From an uncultured Candidatus Saccharibacteria bacterium (GTDB taxonomy: Bacteria > Patescibacteriota > UBA1384 > JAMDBS01 > CAZXAY01), in assembly GCA_964638435.1 (NCBI GenBank), contig CAZXAY010000010.1, forward strand, positions 1 through 30,573: a stretch of DNA of 30,573 nt, read 5' to 3'. The notes below the pieces were generated by a model that saw nothing but the letters and a program-made list of their open reading frames with translations, made no database searches and was not told the origin of the DNA. Shown here one piece after another: positions 4,408 to 24,691 of this stretch. The position numbers and the translations under genes were made by a program. The first letter of the stretch is position 1, and every line of letters begins with the position of its first letter.

Positions 4408-5037
4408 ATGATCAATCAAATAATTAAAGAAGTAGAAAAATACCTAAAAGGGCGGAGTGATTCGCACGATATTGAGCATTGTCATCGTGTGGCTAAAATA
4501 GCCCGTGAGGTTGCCAAAGACTATAACAAAGCCGATACGGAGATTATTATTGCAGGGTGTTATTTACATGACGTAGGTTATACCAAAGCATCTTATGGTC
4601 ACCCGCATTGCGTGGCTGGAGTTAAAATTGCTCAAGATATTCTAGAAAAAATTGGTTACTCACAAGACAAAATTGATAAAATATGCGAAATAGTATTACA
4701 TCACGAAGATAGCAAATTTGGCATAAAATACCAGCCTAATCTAGAAACTAGAATAGTCCAAGATGCTGATGCAATTGATGGCTTTGGAGCTGTTGGGCTA
4801 TCAAGATTTTTCCAATTCGCTGGCTCAACTAATATGCCTCTTTGGATTCCCAGTTACAAAAAAGAACCAAAGATAATTTATGAAAATATAAGTATAATCC
4901 ATAACATCGAGGCAGTGATTAAATATGCTGGTGAAATTTGTACTACAAAGCTTGGTAAAAAATTGTTTAAATATCGCCTAAAGGTAATGAAAAGTTTTGT
5001 TAAAGAATTTAAAAAAGAATGGACCACCCAGATATAA
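4408..5037 (+). CDS. HD-domain phosphohydrolase (possible 5'-deoxynucleotidase)
   Basis: H..H...HD motif: HCHRVAKIA ... YLHDVGY ... LHHED. 209 aa. Sits in the dNMP/dTMP metabolic context. Confidence 0.7.
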   Translation: MINQIIKEVEKYLKGRSDSHDIEHCHRVAKIAREVAKDYNKADTEIIIAGCYLHDVGYTKASYGHPHCVAGVKIAQDILEKIGYSQDKIDKICEIVLHHEDSKFGIKYQPNLETRIVQDADAIDGFGAVGLSRFFQFAGSTNMPLWIPSYKKEPKIIYENISIIHNIEAVIKYAGEICTTKLGKKLFKYRLKVMKSFVKEFKKEWTTQI

Positions 5038-16344: not shown

Positions 16345-16419
16345 GGCTCGGGGACCAGGATTCGAACCTGGATTCACAGCTTCAAAGGCTGCTGTCCTAC
16401 CATTAGACGATCCCCGAGC
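16345..16419 (-). tRNA. tRNA-Gln (anticodon UUG)
   Basis: Minus-strand sequence GCTCGGGGATCGTCTAATGGTAGGACAGCAGCCTTTGAAGCTGTGAATCCAGGTTCGAATCCTGGTCCCCGAGCC. 7-bp acceptor stem. Anticodon arm GCAGC-CTTTGAA-GCTGT. T-arm CCAGG-TTCGAAT-CCTGG. No encoded CCA. Confidence 0.85.
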
Positions 16420-16530
16420 ACTATACGGGATTTCACGTCGGCCGCTGCTTGCCGTGTACCGAACTTTATTCTGGTGCGGGGTCATTTACCACCCCGCTGA
16501 GGTGGGGCAAATTAGACGATCCCAGAATAT
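16420..16530 (-). ncRNA. GC-rich structured segment upstream of tRNA-Gln (leader or unclassified small RNA)
   Basis: About 110 nt, markedly GC-rich and stop-free on both strands. Hairpins: CCACC-TCAGCGG-GGTGG and GGGGT...ACCCC. It starts with GGGATCGTCTAAT, a 13-nt copy of the tRNA 5' end. Shares the 7-mer AAGCAGC with SRP RNA, but no SRP fold could be fitted. Confidence 0.3.
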
Positions 16531-16554
16531 ATTAACAGTTTAACAAATAAATAT

Positions 16555-16582
16555 TGACTTGGCAAGTAAAATTTGCTATGAT
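16555..16582 (+). promoter_or_regulatory. sigma70 promoter of rnpB
   Basis: TTGACT (16555-16560), 17-nt spacer, TATGAT (16577-16582). Predicted TSS about 7 nt downstream coincides with the start of the RNase P RNA P1 helix. Confidence 0.7.
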
Positions 16583-16592
16583 ATATATGCTT

Positions 16593-17014
16593 TAGTAGTA
16601 AAGATTATCGCTCCGATGTAAATCGGGGAGGAAAGTCCGAGCACTTCAAACAATTTACCACGTGTAAACGTGGCCGTCGCAAGACGAGGGAATAGTGTCA
16701 CAGAAATTATACCGCCTAACTATTGCTTGCAATAGTGGTAAGGTTGAAATCGTGAGCCCCTCAATTAAGAGGGGATAGCCTCGAACATTCGGGGTAAAGT
16801 AAGAGCTCACGCGTTTAATTGGTAACAATTAACTGGGTAAACCCTAAATGGTGCAAGTCAGGTGGGTCCGATCATCATCAAAAAGTTAGTTTGGCTCGAT
16901 GTCCACGGATCCTGACGCTTAGACCTCGCCTTTATAGGCGGGGCAAGATAGATGATAATCTAACCTTTTGAGGTAACTCATAGGTAAACAGAACTCGGCT
17001 TATTTACTACTACA
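16593..17014 (+). ncRNA. rnpB: RNase P RNA (bacterial type A)
   Basis: P1 pairing AGTAGTAAA (16596-16604) with TTTACTACT (17004-17012). P4 5' strand GGAGGAAAGTCCGAGC. Conserved ACAGAAATTATACCGCC. GGTAAAGTAAGAGCTCAC. P4 3' strand ACAGAACTCGGCTTAT. Confidence 0.85.
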
Positions 17015-17022
17015 GTATAACA

Positions 17023-19595: not shown

Positions 19596-19982
19596 TTATT
19601 TAGGGATTAATTTGACAGTATAAGAGAAGGTTGGAGTGGTTGGTGTGATATTTTGCTCGTCAGTGTTATACAAGGCGTGCTGGGTAGTGATTTTGTAGAG
19701 TTGGACTGTCATATTTTTTGCTACCGCATTCCCAGATGAGTCTGATTCGGTTTTGATGTTAGTAGGTGTAAATGTTACGTTAGCTTGATTAATTGGTGCA
19801 TTGTTGGAATTATTTAGTACTTTGATGGTAATTTCGGTTTTGTCTGGATCTGGTGTTGGGCTAGGTAGAGCACCACCTGAGGTTGAATAATAGTTATTAG
19901 TACTGCCACCACCTACGGAGCACCCTATAGCATAAAGTACAACAATGCAGAAAACCACAATTACAAAAATAATTTTCACCAC
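19596..19982 (-). CDS. small secreted lipoprotein (GTG start)
   Basis: AAGGAGG lies 8 nt upstream of the GTG at 19982. Signal peptide (M)VKIIFVIVVFCIVVLYAIGC with lipobox AIGC. The ORF-track extension to 20057 has no RBS and translates through an inverted-repeat element. Confidence 0.6.
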   Translation of the reverse strand: MVKIIFVIVVFCIVVLYAIGCSVGGGSTNNYYSTSGGALPSPTPDPDKTEITIKVLNNSNNAPINQANVTFTPTNIKTESDSSGNAVAKNMTVQLYKITTQHALYNTDEQNITPTTPTFSYTVKLIPK

Positions 19983-20030
19983 AAAAATCGCCTCCTTAAT
20001 CATTTGATTTATGTAAATGTGTCTTCCTAA

Positions 20031-20242
20031 CCTGATGGGTCTGTCGCCAAACATCATTTTGGCTGAAAATTACCATATTTGGCTGTGGTTCGACTTTGCT
20101 CACCATCCTGAGCCTGTCGAAGGACAAACTTCATTATATTCCTCTGCTTATCACCTGATAGGCATCGTCATCTACTAAAGTTTTCGCTCAAATGTGATTA
20201 ATTTTCATTCCCAAAGCACATTCGGCGACAGACCTCTGATAG
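20031..20242. mobile_element. MITE-like element with ~20-bp imperfect terminal inverted repeats
   Basis: CCTGATGGGTCTGTCGCC (20031-20048) versus reverse complement of GGCGACAGACCTCTGATAGG (20223-20242). The 11-bp core GGTCTGTCGCC / GGCGACAGACC is perfect. Internal CTGATAGG motif is repeated. No ORF. Confidence 0.4.
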
Positions 20243-20251
20243 GAAATCTAC

Positions 20252-20422
20252 CAAGATATTAACCTAAAAAATTCTTCTTGTCAAGAAGATTGCTAAATCT
20301 TAAATCATAAATCTAAAATCTAAAATTGTTTAGAGTACTTTTTTGAGATATTGGCCAGTAAAAGAAGTTTTTACTTTAACAACTTCTTCTGGAGTTCCTT
20401 GAGCAACAATTTGTCCGCCCAT
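20252..20422. repeat. 171-bp direct repeat (left copy) = target duplication of the IS
   Basis: Identical by eye to 22026-22196 (171 bp). Includes a copy of the last ~94 nt of uvrA plus downstream sequence. Confidence 0.85.
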
Positions 20423-22025
20423 CCCGACTTGTAACATTCTGTTTTTTAAAAGAAATTTGATTGATTATCTAACCATATAACTTGTTTCAAAACTCATTTT
20501 TTGTCATACTAATGGCATGTTTCATATTAGAATAACAAAAACTGCTTCATTATCAAGCGCTGTTCAAGTAGTTCGCTATGAACAACGTAGATTAATTGTT
20601 GTAAAACATATTGGTAGTGCCCATACCTCAGAAGATATTAAGGCGCTAAAATTAATTGCGCGCGAGTGGATAGAAAAGAAGTCTAAACAGCACTCTCTTT
20701 TCCTTGCACAAAAAACAACAGCTTCTCGATTTATCTCTTTGGAGAAAAGCCAGTTTTTGGGAACTCGTTATCCTTTTATTCATCAATTTCTGACCAAAAT
20801 ATCTAGTCGATTTAACTTTGAAAAATTAAATTGTAATTTACTTACCGATTTAGTGATTATCCGTATTATTGAGCCTGCGTCTCTTCTGCGTTCCACAGAG
20901 CTTTTAGACGAGTTGTTTGGTATTAAATATTGGCGTGAGGATTTCTATCGTTATTTGCCACATTTTATCGGCTGGAAAGAAAAAATAGAAGAATGTGCGC
21001 TAACTTTAGCAAAAAGAGAACTTAAGTTCAATTTTACACTCGTCTTTTATGATGTAACAACTTTGTATTTTGAATCATTTAAAGCTGATAATCTAAGAAA
21101 ACCTGGTTTTTCTAAAGATGGTAAATCTGCCCAACCTCAAATCTTAATCGGTTTGCTTGTAAGCTCTGAGGGGTTTCCTGTCGCCTATGAAATATATGAG
21201 GGCAATAAATTTGAAGGTCATACTTTAATTCCTTCTATCTCAAATTTTCAACAAAAATATGAGATCAAAACACTGACAGTTGTCGCTGATGCAGCCATGA
21301 TCAGTTCTGACAATATTAAAGCCCTAAAAGGAAATCAGCTTTCATACATCGTGGGTGCTAGAATTACTAATCTTCCCAAGTTAGTAATAGATGAGATTAA
21401 TAAGAAACTTAAACCTGAAGATGGGACAACCATCAGAATAATATCCAAACATGGAATTTTAGTCTGCGGTTTTTCAACTAAGAGGTATAACAAGGACAAA
21501 CGCGAGATGGAAAAGCAAATCGCTAAAGCAACAATATTACTTAAGTATCCGACAAAAGCCAAGCGTACAAAATTTGTTAAAAGTAAAACTAAAACTAGCT
21601 TTGAGTTAAACAAAACGTTAATTGAAAAAACTAAAAAACTCCTTGGGATTAAAGGATATTACACAAATCTTAATGAAGTTGATGATCAAACTATCATCGC
21701 CAGGTATCATGATCTTTGGCACGTTGAACAGGCTTTTAGAATAGCAAAAAATGATCTCGAGACTCGTCCCGTTTATCATTTTAAAGAAGATCCTATTAAA
21801 GTTCATATTATGATCTGCTTTATGGCTTTGGCCGTTTGCAAATATCTAGAGATCAAAACTGGTAAATCAATTAAGAACATTATCAAATTATTTAAAAGTG
21901 TGGTAGATGCCCGAATTCTGAATACTGTAACAAGAGAAGAAATCACAATGCAATCTGTTATATCAAAAGAAGTGAAAGATATTTTAGAAATATTAAGATT
22001 GCCATACTAATTGTTACAAGTCGGG
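20423..22025 (+). mobile_element. IS4-superfamily / IS1634-family insertion sequence
   Basis: Terminal inverted repeats CCCGACTTGTAACA (20423-20436) and TGTTACAAGTCGGG (22012-22025), 14/14. Single DDE transposase ORF. Flanked by a 171-bp direct duplication. Long variable target duplications are a hallmark of IS1634-like elements. Confidence 0.8.
20517..22010 (+). CDS. DDE transposase, IS4/IS1634 family
   Basis: 497 aa. Candidate catalytic D in FYDVTTLYFES and VADAAM. C-terminal YHDLWHVEQAFRIAK fits the IS4 Y-x2-[R]-x3-E-x6-K signature (here L replaces R). Confidence 0.75.
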   Translation: MFHIRITKTASLSSAVQVVRYEQRRLIVVKHIGSAHTSEDIKALKLIAREWIEKKSKQHSLFLAQKTTASRFISLEKSQFLGTRYPFIHQFLTKISSRFNFEKLNCNLLTDLVIIRIIEPASLLRSTELLDELFGIKYWREDFYRYLPHFIGWKEKIEECALTLAKRELKFNFTLVFYDVTTLYFESFKADNLRKPGFSKDGKSAQPQILIGLLVSSEGFPVAYEIYEGNKFEGHTLIPSISNFQQKYEIKTLTVVADAAMISSDNIKALKGNQLSYIVGARITNLPKLVIDEINKKLKPEDGTTIRIISKHGILVCGFSTKRYNKDKREMEKQIAKATILLKYPTKAKRTKFVKSKTKTSFELNKTLIEKTKKLLGIKGYYTNLNEVDDQTIIARYHDLWHVEQAFRIAKNDLETRPVYHFKEDPIKVHIMICFMALAVCKYLEIKTGKSIKNIIKLFKSVVDARILNTVTREEITMQSVISKEVKDILEILRLPY

Positions 22026-22196
22026 AAGATATTAACCTAAAAAATTCTTCTTGTCAAGAAGATTGCTAAATCTTAAATCATAAATCTAAAATCTAAAATT
22101 GTTTAGAGTACTTTTTTGAGATATTGGCCAGTAAAAGAAGTTTTTACTTTAACAACTTCTTCTGGAGTTCCTTGAGCAACAATTTGTCCGCCCATG
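22026..22196. repeat. 171-bp direct repeat (right copy), contiguous with intact uvrA 3' end
   Basis: Matches 20252-20422. Confidence 0.85.
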
Positions 22197-24601
22197 TCAC
22201 CACCGTCTGGTCCCATATCAATTATATGGTCAGCACATTTGATTACATCCATATTATGTTCGATGACTAAGACTGTATTACCTTTATCAACTAATGCCTG
22301 AAGGACTTTTAGTAAACGGTCTATATCTTCAAAATGTAAGCCAGTAGTTGGTTCATCAAGAATATACAAAGTTTGACCTGTATCTTGTCTAGCAAGCTCA
22401 GTAGCTAATTTAACACGTTGGGCCTCACCACCAGAGAGAGTTGTAGCTGATTGACCTAACTTCATATAACCAAGCCCAACAGCAGACAATACCGAAAGTT
22501 TAGTATTTAATATTGGTACGTCTTTAAAAAACTGCCAAACATCATCTATGGTCATTTCTAGAACATCAGCAATATTTTTGCCTTTATGGTAAATGTCTAA
22601 TACTTCCTTATTATATCTACGACCGTGACATGTATCACAAGTAATATAAACGTCTGGTAAAAAGTGCATTTCGAATTTAATAACCCCATCTCCTTTACAA
22701 TTTTCGCATCGACCACCTTTAACGTTAAAGGAAAAATGACCAGAATTATAGTTTCTTTTAACTGCTTCTGTGTTAGATGTAAAAATTTCTCTTATTGTTG
22801 TAAAAACACCAGTATAAGTTGCGGGGTTACTGCGAGGTGTTCTACCAATAGCCGATTGGTCAATGTTAATTACTTTATCAATAAATTGGGTACCAATTAA
22901 TGCTTTGTGAGCTCCGGGCTCAGATTTGGCATGGTGGAATTTTTTAGACAATGCTTTAGCGAGAATGTCAGAAACCAAGGTTGATTTACCACTTCCAGAA
23001 ACACCTGTAATACAAGTAAATGTGTTCAAGGGTATCTTTACGTCAATATTTTTTAAATTATGTTCTGTAGCACCTTTAATAATTAAATACTTATTATTTG
23101 TTGTGCGGCGTTTTTTTGGAATCATTATCCCTTTTTTACCAGTTAAATATTGACCAGTTAATGAATTGGGATCATTTTTAATCTCTTGGGGTGTCCCTTG
23201 AGCCATCACTTTACCGCCTAGCTCGCCGGCTCCGGGGCCAATATCAATTATATAATCTGCAGCATCCATAGTTTGTTTATCATGTTCGACTACAATTACT
23301 GTATTATCTAGGTCGCGTAACCTAAATAGATTTTTAATTAATTTTTCTTGATCCCTTTCGTGTAACCCAATGGATGGTTCATCAAGAATATATATAACAC
23401 CCGTTAGATATGATCCAAGTTGAGTTGCCAGACGAATTCTTTGTGCTTCACCACCAGCAAGACTTTCAGCATTACGATCAAGAGTTAGGTAGGATAAACC
23501 AACTTCGATGATAAATTTTAACCTTTTAATAATATCATTAACGATTTGCTCAACTATCTTTTTTTCTGTAACAGACAATTTTGAATTTAATTTATTAAAA
23601 AAATCTAATATTTGGGTAATATTCATTGCAGAAATTTCTACAATATTTTTTTTATCGATTGTAACTTTTAAGATCTCTTGTTTAAGTCTTTTACCACCAC
23701 AAACTGGGCAGATTCGTTTAACCATATATTTTTCGATTTCGTTTTGAATATAATCAGAATCTGTTTCTTTGTACCTTTTTTCTAGGTTTGGGATTACTCC
23801 TTCAAAATATTTACTATCTGTTGGTACACCAAAACCATCTAAAATAACTTTTCTAATTTGTTTTGTAAGATGACTCACAGGTGTTTCTAAACTAAAATGA
23901 AAATCTTGTGCAAGTTTTTGCAAAGCTTTATTATACCAACTACTATGTGATGTTGTCCGGCTCCAAGGTCTAATAGCACCTTCGGATATGGTAAGTCTTA
24001 AATTTGGTAAAACTAACTTAGGATCGACTTCTAATCTTTCTCCAAGCCCTTGACAACCAGGGCAGGCACCGCGAGGACTATTAAAAGAAAAGGAACTAAT
24101 ATTAAGTTCAGAAAGAGAATATTGACAATCTAGACATTGATAAATAGTTTGGTTGATTTTATTATTGGCAACTTTTTTGTCTTCTTCATCAGGCTTGATT
24201 ATTTCTATTTCGCGTTTAACTAATTTTTTGCCACAATTAATGCAGTGCGAGATACCAATCCTTGTAAATAATAACCTAAGATAGTCATATATCTCACTCA
24301 TCGTGCCAACAGTGGAACGGGGACTAATACCAGCAGTTTTTTGATCTATAGATAGAGCTGGGGATAAACCTTCTATATAATCAACGTCAGGTTTTTCTAA
24401 TGATCCTAAAAATTGTCTGGCATAATTTGATAATGATTCAACATATCTGCGTTGCCCTTCGGCATATATTGTGTCAAATGCTAGTGACGATTTACCACTA
24501 CCAGAAATACCGGTTAATACAGTAAGTTGGTTTCTAGGAATTTCAACAGTAATATTTTTTAGATTATGTACTCGAGCGCCAACAACTTTGATTTTATCCA
24601 T
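22103..24601 (-). CDS. uvrA: UvrA-family ABC ATPase, short form lacking the UvrB-binding domain
   Basis: Two ABC ATPase modules ([20 protein letters not shown]). Signature LSGGE and Zn modules ([16 protein letters not shown]). Only about 35 aa separate CINCGKK from CLDCQYS, where E. coli UvrA carries the ~130-aa UvrB-binding domain. 832 aa. Confidence 0.8.
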
Positions 24602-24691
24602 ACGGTCCTTAAAACAAATTCAAATTTCAAAACTCAAATTTTAAATCAAATCCAAATGTTTAAATGTTTTAAAATTAGAATTTAATTAATT

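Follow-up and report, generated by a model that had tools for sequence, protein, structure and literature searches.

A divergent IS1634-family insertion sequence flanked by 170-bp direct repeats at the 3′ end of uvrA in a Patescibacteria-type genome

We analyzed a 30,573-nt contig (CAZXAY010000010.1; hereafter the window, meaning this whole stretch of DNA) of an uncultured Candidatus Saccharibacteria bacterium, in which a 1603-bp insertion sequence (IS) lies at the 3′ end of the uvrA gene, bracketed by two perfect 170-bp direct repeats. This arrangement very probably arose when a single element of the IS1634 family transposed into the uvrA 3′ end region and made a 170-bp target duplication. 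The conclusion builds on what is demonstrated below, namely, the anatomy of the element, its family membership, a relative in which the site is empty, and long perfect repeats that turn up again and again around related elements. Since the relative lacks the IS at this locus and related elements also carry flanking repeats, 3 of them on plasmid records deposited as complete, we attribute the long duplication to a property of the transposase; it is probably not an assembly artifact. A repeat of this length class had already been read as a target duplication in an earlier note on this DNA, and the exact abutment of the repeats, the IS-less relative, and the long perfect repeats around related elements all bear that reading out.

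The IS occupies positions 20423-22025 on the plus strand and is bounded by perfect 14-bp inverted repeats. The repeat search placed the left terminal inverted repeat (IRL, CCCGACTTGTAACA) at 20423-20436 on the plus strand and the right one (IRR, TGTTACAAGTCGGG), its perfect reverse complement, at 22012-22025 on the minus strand, in full agreement with the limits, the length of 1603 bp, and the 14-bp termini given for the element in the earlier note. Even with up to 2 mismatches tolerated, IRL and IRR are the sole 2 matches to the 14-bp end in the 30.6-kb window, against 0.09 that chance would give. According to the same search, the pair is extendable to 15 nt by T20422 and A22026. These two bases belong to the direct repeat as well, T20422 closing it and A22026 opening it, and the IS boundary is therefore ambiguous by one base per side. 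Comparison with public sequences independently confirms the boundaries: a 1605-bp contig (L001) consists of TT followed by the window's IS at 97.6% identity and ends exactly at the right IS end, and two 1603-bp copies (L015 and L016, with 81% and 88% identity, respectively) have the same ends. All four junctions are found on one contig, and the GC content of the IS (0.32-0.35) is the same as that of its surroundings. The idea that a repeat within the element, D6 (TTGYCATACTAAT), might be a subterminal binding site was rejected, because its right-hand copy is the C-terminal coding sequence of the transposase together with the stop codon.

The left copy of the direct repeat (20253-20422) abuts the left IS end exactly and is 100% identical to the right copy (22026-22195), which begins exactly at the right IS end. 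The limits of the repeat are set by mismatches on either side (C20252 versus G22025 and C20423 versus G22196). The earlier description of two identical 171-bp repeats at 20252-20422 and 22026-22196 is right as to identity, and its length and coordinates are corrected here for a misregister of one base. A perfect 170-nt repeat that exactly abuts both IS termini cannot be a chance match. Of the repeat, 93 nt belong to uvrA and include its stop codon (22103-22195; formerly estimated at ~94 nt); the other 77 nt, as had been stated, are downstream DNA (22026-22102 on the minus strand, duplicated at 20253-20329). The right copy supplies the functional 3′ end of uvrA, which is intact at 22103-24601 on the minus strand, has its last 93 nt within the repeat, and encodes a protein of 832 aa that scores 1265 bits against NF001503 (cut-off 1147) and 1207 bits against TIGR00630. 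Inside the left copy lies a dead uvrA 3′ fragment (20330-20422, minus strand), which had been recognized before with a start at 20329; it comprises the last 30 codons and the stop codon, and its translation is identical to the UvrA C-terminus. Because the whole interval was duplicated, nothing is lost, and uvrA retains both its own terminus and the 77-nt trailer behind it, as foreseen in the proposal that the gene owes its full length to the duplication. There are no mismatches between the two copies, as reported earlier; the accompanying idea that mismatches could serve as a clock for the insertion holds only loosely, in that zero mismatches in 170 bp set only a loose bound on its age, and the clock could be set back by gene conversion from one copy to the other.

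Other features of the repeat and its junctions are minor. The 77-nt trailer can form a hairpin (UCUUCUU-GAC-AAGAAGA) followed by a U-run, with a fold no better than that of shuffled sequence (z = −0.66); given this z score, and since the terminator scan made no call, we do not claim a terminator downstream of uvrA. Both repeat copies carry a sigma-70-like TTGACA-17-TAATAT motif (10/12) on the minus strand, and we consider a promoter in the repeat weak only, as the region has 12 promoter-like hits where shuffled sequence leads one to expect 10, which is no enrichment. A 35-aa open reading frame (ORF) at 20330-20437 on the minus strand starts with an ATG in IRL (20437-20435) and continues past the IS end into the dead tail of uvrA; this junction-spanning fusion is probably meaningless.

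The only long ORF in the IS (20517-22010, plus strand) encodes a 497-aa DDE-type transposase that contains YHDLWHVEQAFRIAK, and its stop codon (22008-22010) lies 1 nt before IRR. Profile comparisons confirm the transposase as a clear member of the IS1634 family. It matches the NCBIfam model NF033559.2 “IS1634 family transposase” with 325.9 bits (cut-off 100), with residues 28-496 aligned to profile positions 5-482 of 483, and this score bears out the IS1634-like affiliation suggested in the earlier note; the next-best IS-family models (IS1380, IS1182, IS4, and IS701) reach 20-26 bits, far under their cut-offs, and the Pfam DDE_Tnp_1 match scores 46 bits. In an alignment of 19 homologues with 33-97% identity, D179, D258, and E404 are invariant, with 146 aa between D258 and E404, as is the signature Y397-x2-L400-x3-E404-x6-K411, which corresponds to the YREK motif with L in place of R. 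The IS ends (CCCGACTT...) fit the family consensus C-----YT, with C at position 1 and TT at positions 7-8.

The traits that separate the IS1634 family from IS4 are an incomplete YREK motif, long spacers between conserved regions of the transposase, a length of 1500-2000 bp, and C-----YT ends (PMC2266710). The window's element displays these traits, with its R-less YREK motif, a long spacer between the second D and E of the DDE triad, a size of 1603 bp, and C-----YT ends, in addition to the profile match, and its 170-bp duplication falls within the published long range of 8-514 bp and outside the typical 5-6 bp. It departs from the IS4 family sensu stricto in the replacement of R by L400, in the 170-bp duplication, and in its score of 23.7 bits against NF033592 (cut-off 115). 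The protein had previously been called a 497-aa IS4-superfamily DDE transposase, of which the length and the DDE type stand; the IS4 label needs correction in that ISfinder-type classification separates IS1634, with its incomplete YREK motif, from the IS4 family.

The intact ORF, the perfect inverted repeats, and the identical direct repeats are indirect signs that the element may be active. A search for homologues of the transposase returned 6734 matches (E ≤ 1e-60), of which those that carry a name come from Patescibacteria-type groups, Ignavibacteria, Bacteroidota, and further phyla. Most of the 120 homologues listed are on IS-sized contigs (~1.6-1.7 kb), as expected of multicopy elements. 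Queries with the exact sequences of the transposase, of UvrA, of the neighbors of 153, 731, and 150 aa, and of P0241 gave no matches, and no locus of the same species, with or without the IS, was obtained.

The earlier note had proposed a search for an empty site in related genomes, and such a site is present in a JGI contig (Ga0376277_0014556, L018). Its UvrA has 832 aa and is 79% identical over the full length to that of the window, with 75% nucleotide identity between the genes. The locus is syntenic upstream, where the bactofilin and DAGK-like genes are conserved, and downstream, where it has a homologue of the window's 731-aa protein and the region of RNase P RNA and tRNA genes. There is no transposase at the L018 locus, and a single uvrA 3′ end is found there, with no tandem duplication; on sequence comparison, it is an empty site in a relative.

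Within the window, the gene next to the insertion (19596-20057, minus strand) still has, to the left of the IS, the 270 nt that natively lie upstream of it. The 153-aa ORF adjoining the insertion is 100% identical to EKD56370.1 (ACD_58C00211G0001) from an uncultured bacterium, and contig AMFJ01025028.1 of an older assembly (GCA_000299275.1) is 100% identical to positions 22419-24677. The window is therefore a later and longer assembly from that data set, which stems from groundwater of the Rifle aquifer (bin ACD58). The best named homologues of UvrA are from Patescibacteria group and Berkelbacteria bacteria.

UvrA of the window is class-I-like, scoring 1085 bits with PDB entry 2r6f versus 665 bits with the UvrA2 entry 2vf7. 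Its residues 154-832 align to chain residues 268-956, and the protein thus lacks ~110 aa, a region which we take to be the UvrB-binding domain. The Pfam domain PF17760 is absent from this UvrA and from its ~18 closest homologues (819-845 aa) and is present in more distant ones of 925-985 aa. Farther from the insertion, the window encodes a class A RNase P RNA (16592-17017, plus strand; 174.6 bits) and a tRNA-Gln (16345-16417, minus strand), and this block (16345-17017) has 75-83% nucleotide identity to L018. A segment of higher GC content (0.44-0.45 at 12001-14000 versus ~0.33 elsewhere) spans a 721-aa ORF (11614-13779, plus strand), inside which there is a 312-aa antisense ORF.

Repeats were also found around related elements, where they are perfect and on single contigs unless stated otherwise. 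The element with transposase P0229, which is 58% identical to that of the window, is flanked by an 18-bp repeat at one site (L028, L031, L032, and L034) and by a 41-bp repeat at a second (L027), each on a single contig. Repeats of 41 bp and 38 bp flank the copies in a Cytophagales metagenome-assembled genome (MAG; L010, 388-kb contig) and a Gracilibacteria MAG (L012), respectively. Three plasmid records deposited as complete carry repeats of 93 bp (Rhodococcus rhodochrous pNit; L045, 1381-3076), 54 bp (Actinomyces oris; L047, 1376-3083), and 32 bp (R. pyridinivorans; L044, 1381-3076). A 54-bp repeat is also found in an Ignavibacteria MAG (L005), where the copy at 4502-4555 abuts the right IS end and the left copy stands 36 bp from the IS end (2794-2883); the 36-bp gap is part of a GTCATTCTGA/TCAGAATGAC palindrome and may reflect a secondary event or an insertion into a repeated palindromic element. 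A 29-bp repeat was deduced by eye across two contigs, from the left flank of L037 and the right flank of L038.

The window holds one copy of the IS only, and further overlaps were obtained from contigs with closely similar copies. For the 97%-identical transposase P0121 (L019-L025), all-versus-all pairing of left and right flanks across contigs yielded overlaps of 81 and 118 bp, and the flanks of an 88%-identical copy (L016) overlap by 65 bp. Contigs in which a right IS end is followed by the spacer and then by a left IS end are represented by L016 (1-1723, 65 bp), L025 (1-1714, 81 bp), and L020 (331-2112, 118 bp), as well as by L024. As proof of long repeats, these 4 contigs were downgraded, since an assembly-graph cycle around [repeat][IS][repeat] and a tandem array are indistinguishable. 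A scan of metagenome DNA with the IS-end pattern recovered only L015 and L016, neither with a usable single-contig flanking repeat, and we dropped a helical-phase periodicity of repeat lengths, there being too few cases and no apparent pattern.

The repeat of the window could be produced by a simple series of steps. Each of the two 3′-OH ends of the IS would be joined to a different target strand, and the two joining points would be separated by 170 bp, where 5-10 bp is usual, with one join 77 nt downstream of the uvrA stop codon and the other 93 nt inside uvrA. Repair or strand-displacement synthesis from the two free 3′-OH ends of the target would then copy the 170-bp interval and give [170][IS][170]. 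Such widely staggered strand transfer with fill-in, which we infer from the final structure, would be a minimal extension of ordinary staggered-cut transposition.

Several points weigh against this account of the locus. The relative with the empty site is of another species, its uvrA sharing only 75% nucleotide identity with that of the window; the join across the IS is known from the assembled contig alone; and the older assembly of this sample is broken up at the locus, with AMFJ01025028.1 reaching only 22419-24677 and the locus tag ACD_58C00211G0001 suggesting that the 153-aa ORF opened another old contig. In short-read metagenome assemblies, contigs with this IS (L019-L025 and L027-L036) often pair unrelated flanks, and one right flank is joined to four left flanks (L028, L029, L030, and L036, the left flank of the latter being cut off). 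By their sequences, these different-flank pairings are chimeric joins across a multicopy IS, and such joins do happen. Four copies (L007, L015, L039, and L040) show no flanking repeat; given the shuffling of flanks among contigs, many of the repeat-less copies may be chimeric joins. The 65-, 81-, and 118-bp cases could also be true tandem IS arrays and are compatible with the account rather than decisive for it. The geometry of strand transfer, finally, is our inference, and no mechanistic model had been proposed for the variable duplications of the family as of the 2008 survey (PMC2266710).

A variant with the same mechanism, differing in the boundary, assigns the ambiguous bases to the element, so that the IS would measure 1605 bp (20422-22026), with 15-bp inverted repeats TCCCGACTTGTAACA and a 168-bp duplication. 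We regard it as possible but rather unlikely. In 40 of the 43 distinct flanks of the window's clade, an A is found next to the CCYGACTT end (read outward); an IS-only contig (L008) begins with T and ends with A; and L042 has T and A immediately outside its IS ends, all of which fits the longer element. When measured from the C...G ends, however, the repeat of the window, five other measured repeats, and the 29-bp pair identified by eye all end in T, and the same repeats start with A in all but the 65-bp case. T and A themselves are thus duplicated with the target, and their ownership by the IS would need a chance match at both ends of the repeat in each case. Both the A-rich flanks and the duplicated T and A are explained if the IS ends prefer to join the target at an A. 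The simpler reading, drawn from ~7 sites, is that each IS 3′ end was joined to a 5′-A, one per strand, a variable distance apart.

Alternatively, the contig could be a chimera of two sub-populations with equally oriented IS copies, one inside the uvrA 3′ end and one downstream, at a distance of 170 bp from each other and each with an ordinary short duplication; the left junction of one would have been joined to the right junction of the other during assembly or curation. The mixing of flanks from different copies in contigs with this multicopy IS from other metagenomes, together with the break around the locus in the earlier AMFJ assembly of the same sample, lends this scenario some plausibility, but it needs two independent same-orientation insertions within 170 bp, one of which would truncate uvrA by 30 codons, and the chimeric joins seen elsewhere pair unrelated flanks, not overlapping ones. 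It is also unnecessary, considering the perfect repeats of 93, 54, and 32 bp on plasmid records deposited as complete and the long repeats documented for IS1634 and IS1549, and we judge it very improbable. We find it hardly credible that the repeat was not made by the transposition itself, with the IS having landed exactly between the two units of a tandem 170-bp duplication that was already there, or with neighboring IS copies having later undergone unequal recombination between sister chromosomes. Duplication by recombination in association with an IS does occur, as shown by the 8-13 kb tandem segments flanked by or harboring IS1634 in Mycoplasma mycoides (PMC1798306), and the contigs with 65, 81, or 118 bp between IS ends (L016, L025, and L020) might reflect tandem arrangements. 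However, the uvrA end is not tandemly duplicated in L018, the window's two repeat copies meet the IS termini at the exact base and leave no room for an extra short duplication, and the same architecture, with repeats of 18-93 bp, recurs at unrelated sites, which fits a property of transposition better than a set of coincidences.

Transposition with a long target duplication, the reading we prefer, makes the window's IS a new, divergent member of a known family with a known, unusual behavior. To our knowledge, no long duplication of the IS1634 type has been described in candidate-phyla bacteria. Long repeats look common across the IS1634 family, and in the window's clade they appear to run from A to T; the range of perfect repeats from 18 to 170 bp and the A...T ends suggest a lack of spatial coupling between the two strand transfers, and the repeats around relatives provide concrete sites and elements for testing this possibility. 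More tentatively, and with somewhat less than even confidence, we propose that a very large branch of the IS1634 family, widespread in the environment, normally makes long variable duplications, and that in this branch the site would be chosen separately for each end, at a 5′-A on each strand, with no fixed spacing. In that case, the window's IS, compact at 1.6 kb, would offer a tractable model of the unexplained duplication mechanism, and long duplications would make gene-end insertions non-disruptive in small, gene-dense genomes. For annotation purposes, uvrA is to be treated as intact, the upstream copy of its tail as a by-product of the insertion rather than a pseudogene, and the 170-bp repeat as a transposition scar.

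The earlier note had called the long duplication the defining behavior of the IS1634 family, which does not agree with the literature. According to a 2008 survey, the typical target duplication of the family is 5-6 bp and AT-rich (PMC2266710), and long variable repeats (8-514 bp) are reported only for IS1634 and IS1549, both of which are cited there as forming long repeats upon insertion. ISGka5 of Geobacillus kaustophilus, an IS1634-family element, produced a 6-bp repeat in an observed transposition (PMC8024623); it and the bulk of the family, with duplications of 5-6 bp, differ in this respect from the window's element with its 170 bp. IS4 proper (IS50/Tn5, IS10, and IS231) shares the DDE_Tnp_1 domain and the Y-x2-?-x3-E-x6-K signature with the window's transposase, whereas the latter has an invariant L for R, 23.7 bits against the IS4 hidden Markov model (cut-off 115), and a 170-bp duplication. 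In IS4 members, the YREK motif is complete and the duplication has a fixed length of 7-13 bp (PMC2266710). IS1634 itself resembles the window's element in family, as judged by the transposase model, in its single DDE ORF, in a size within 1500-2000 bp, and in its long variable direct repeats, and differs in its length of 1872 bp and its mycoplasma host (PMC1798306), compared to 1603 bp and a Patescibacteria-type host. The annotated IS1634-family plasmid copies of cultured bacteria encode transposases only 30-35% identical to that of the window, which thus represents a divergent branch of the family, and the CCTGAC core of the Actinomyces copy is flanked by A at its left end and by T at its right end, opposite to the T...A found in the window's clade. 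IS1549 of Mycobacterium smegmatis and the plasmid copies of Rhodococcus and Actinomyces nevertheless belong to the same family and have similar termini, with CCCGAGTTGCACCAG and CCTGACTCGTGACA to be compared with CCCGACTTGTAACA of the window.

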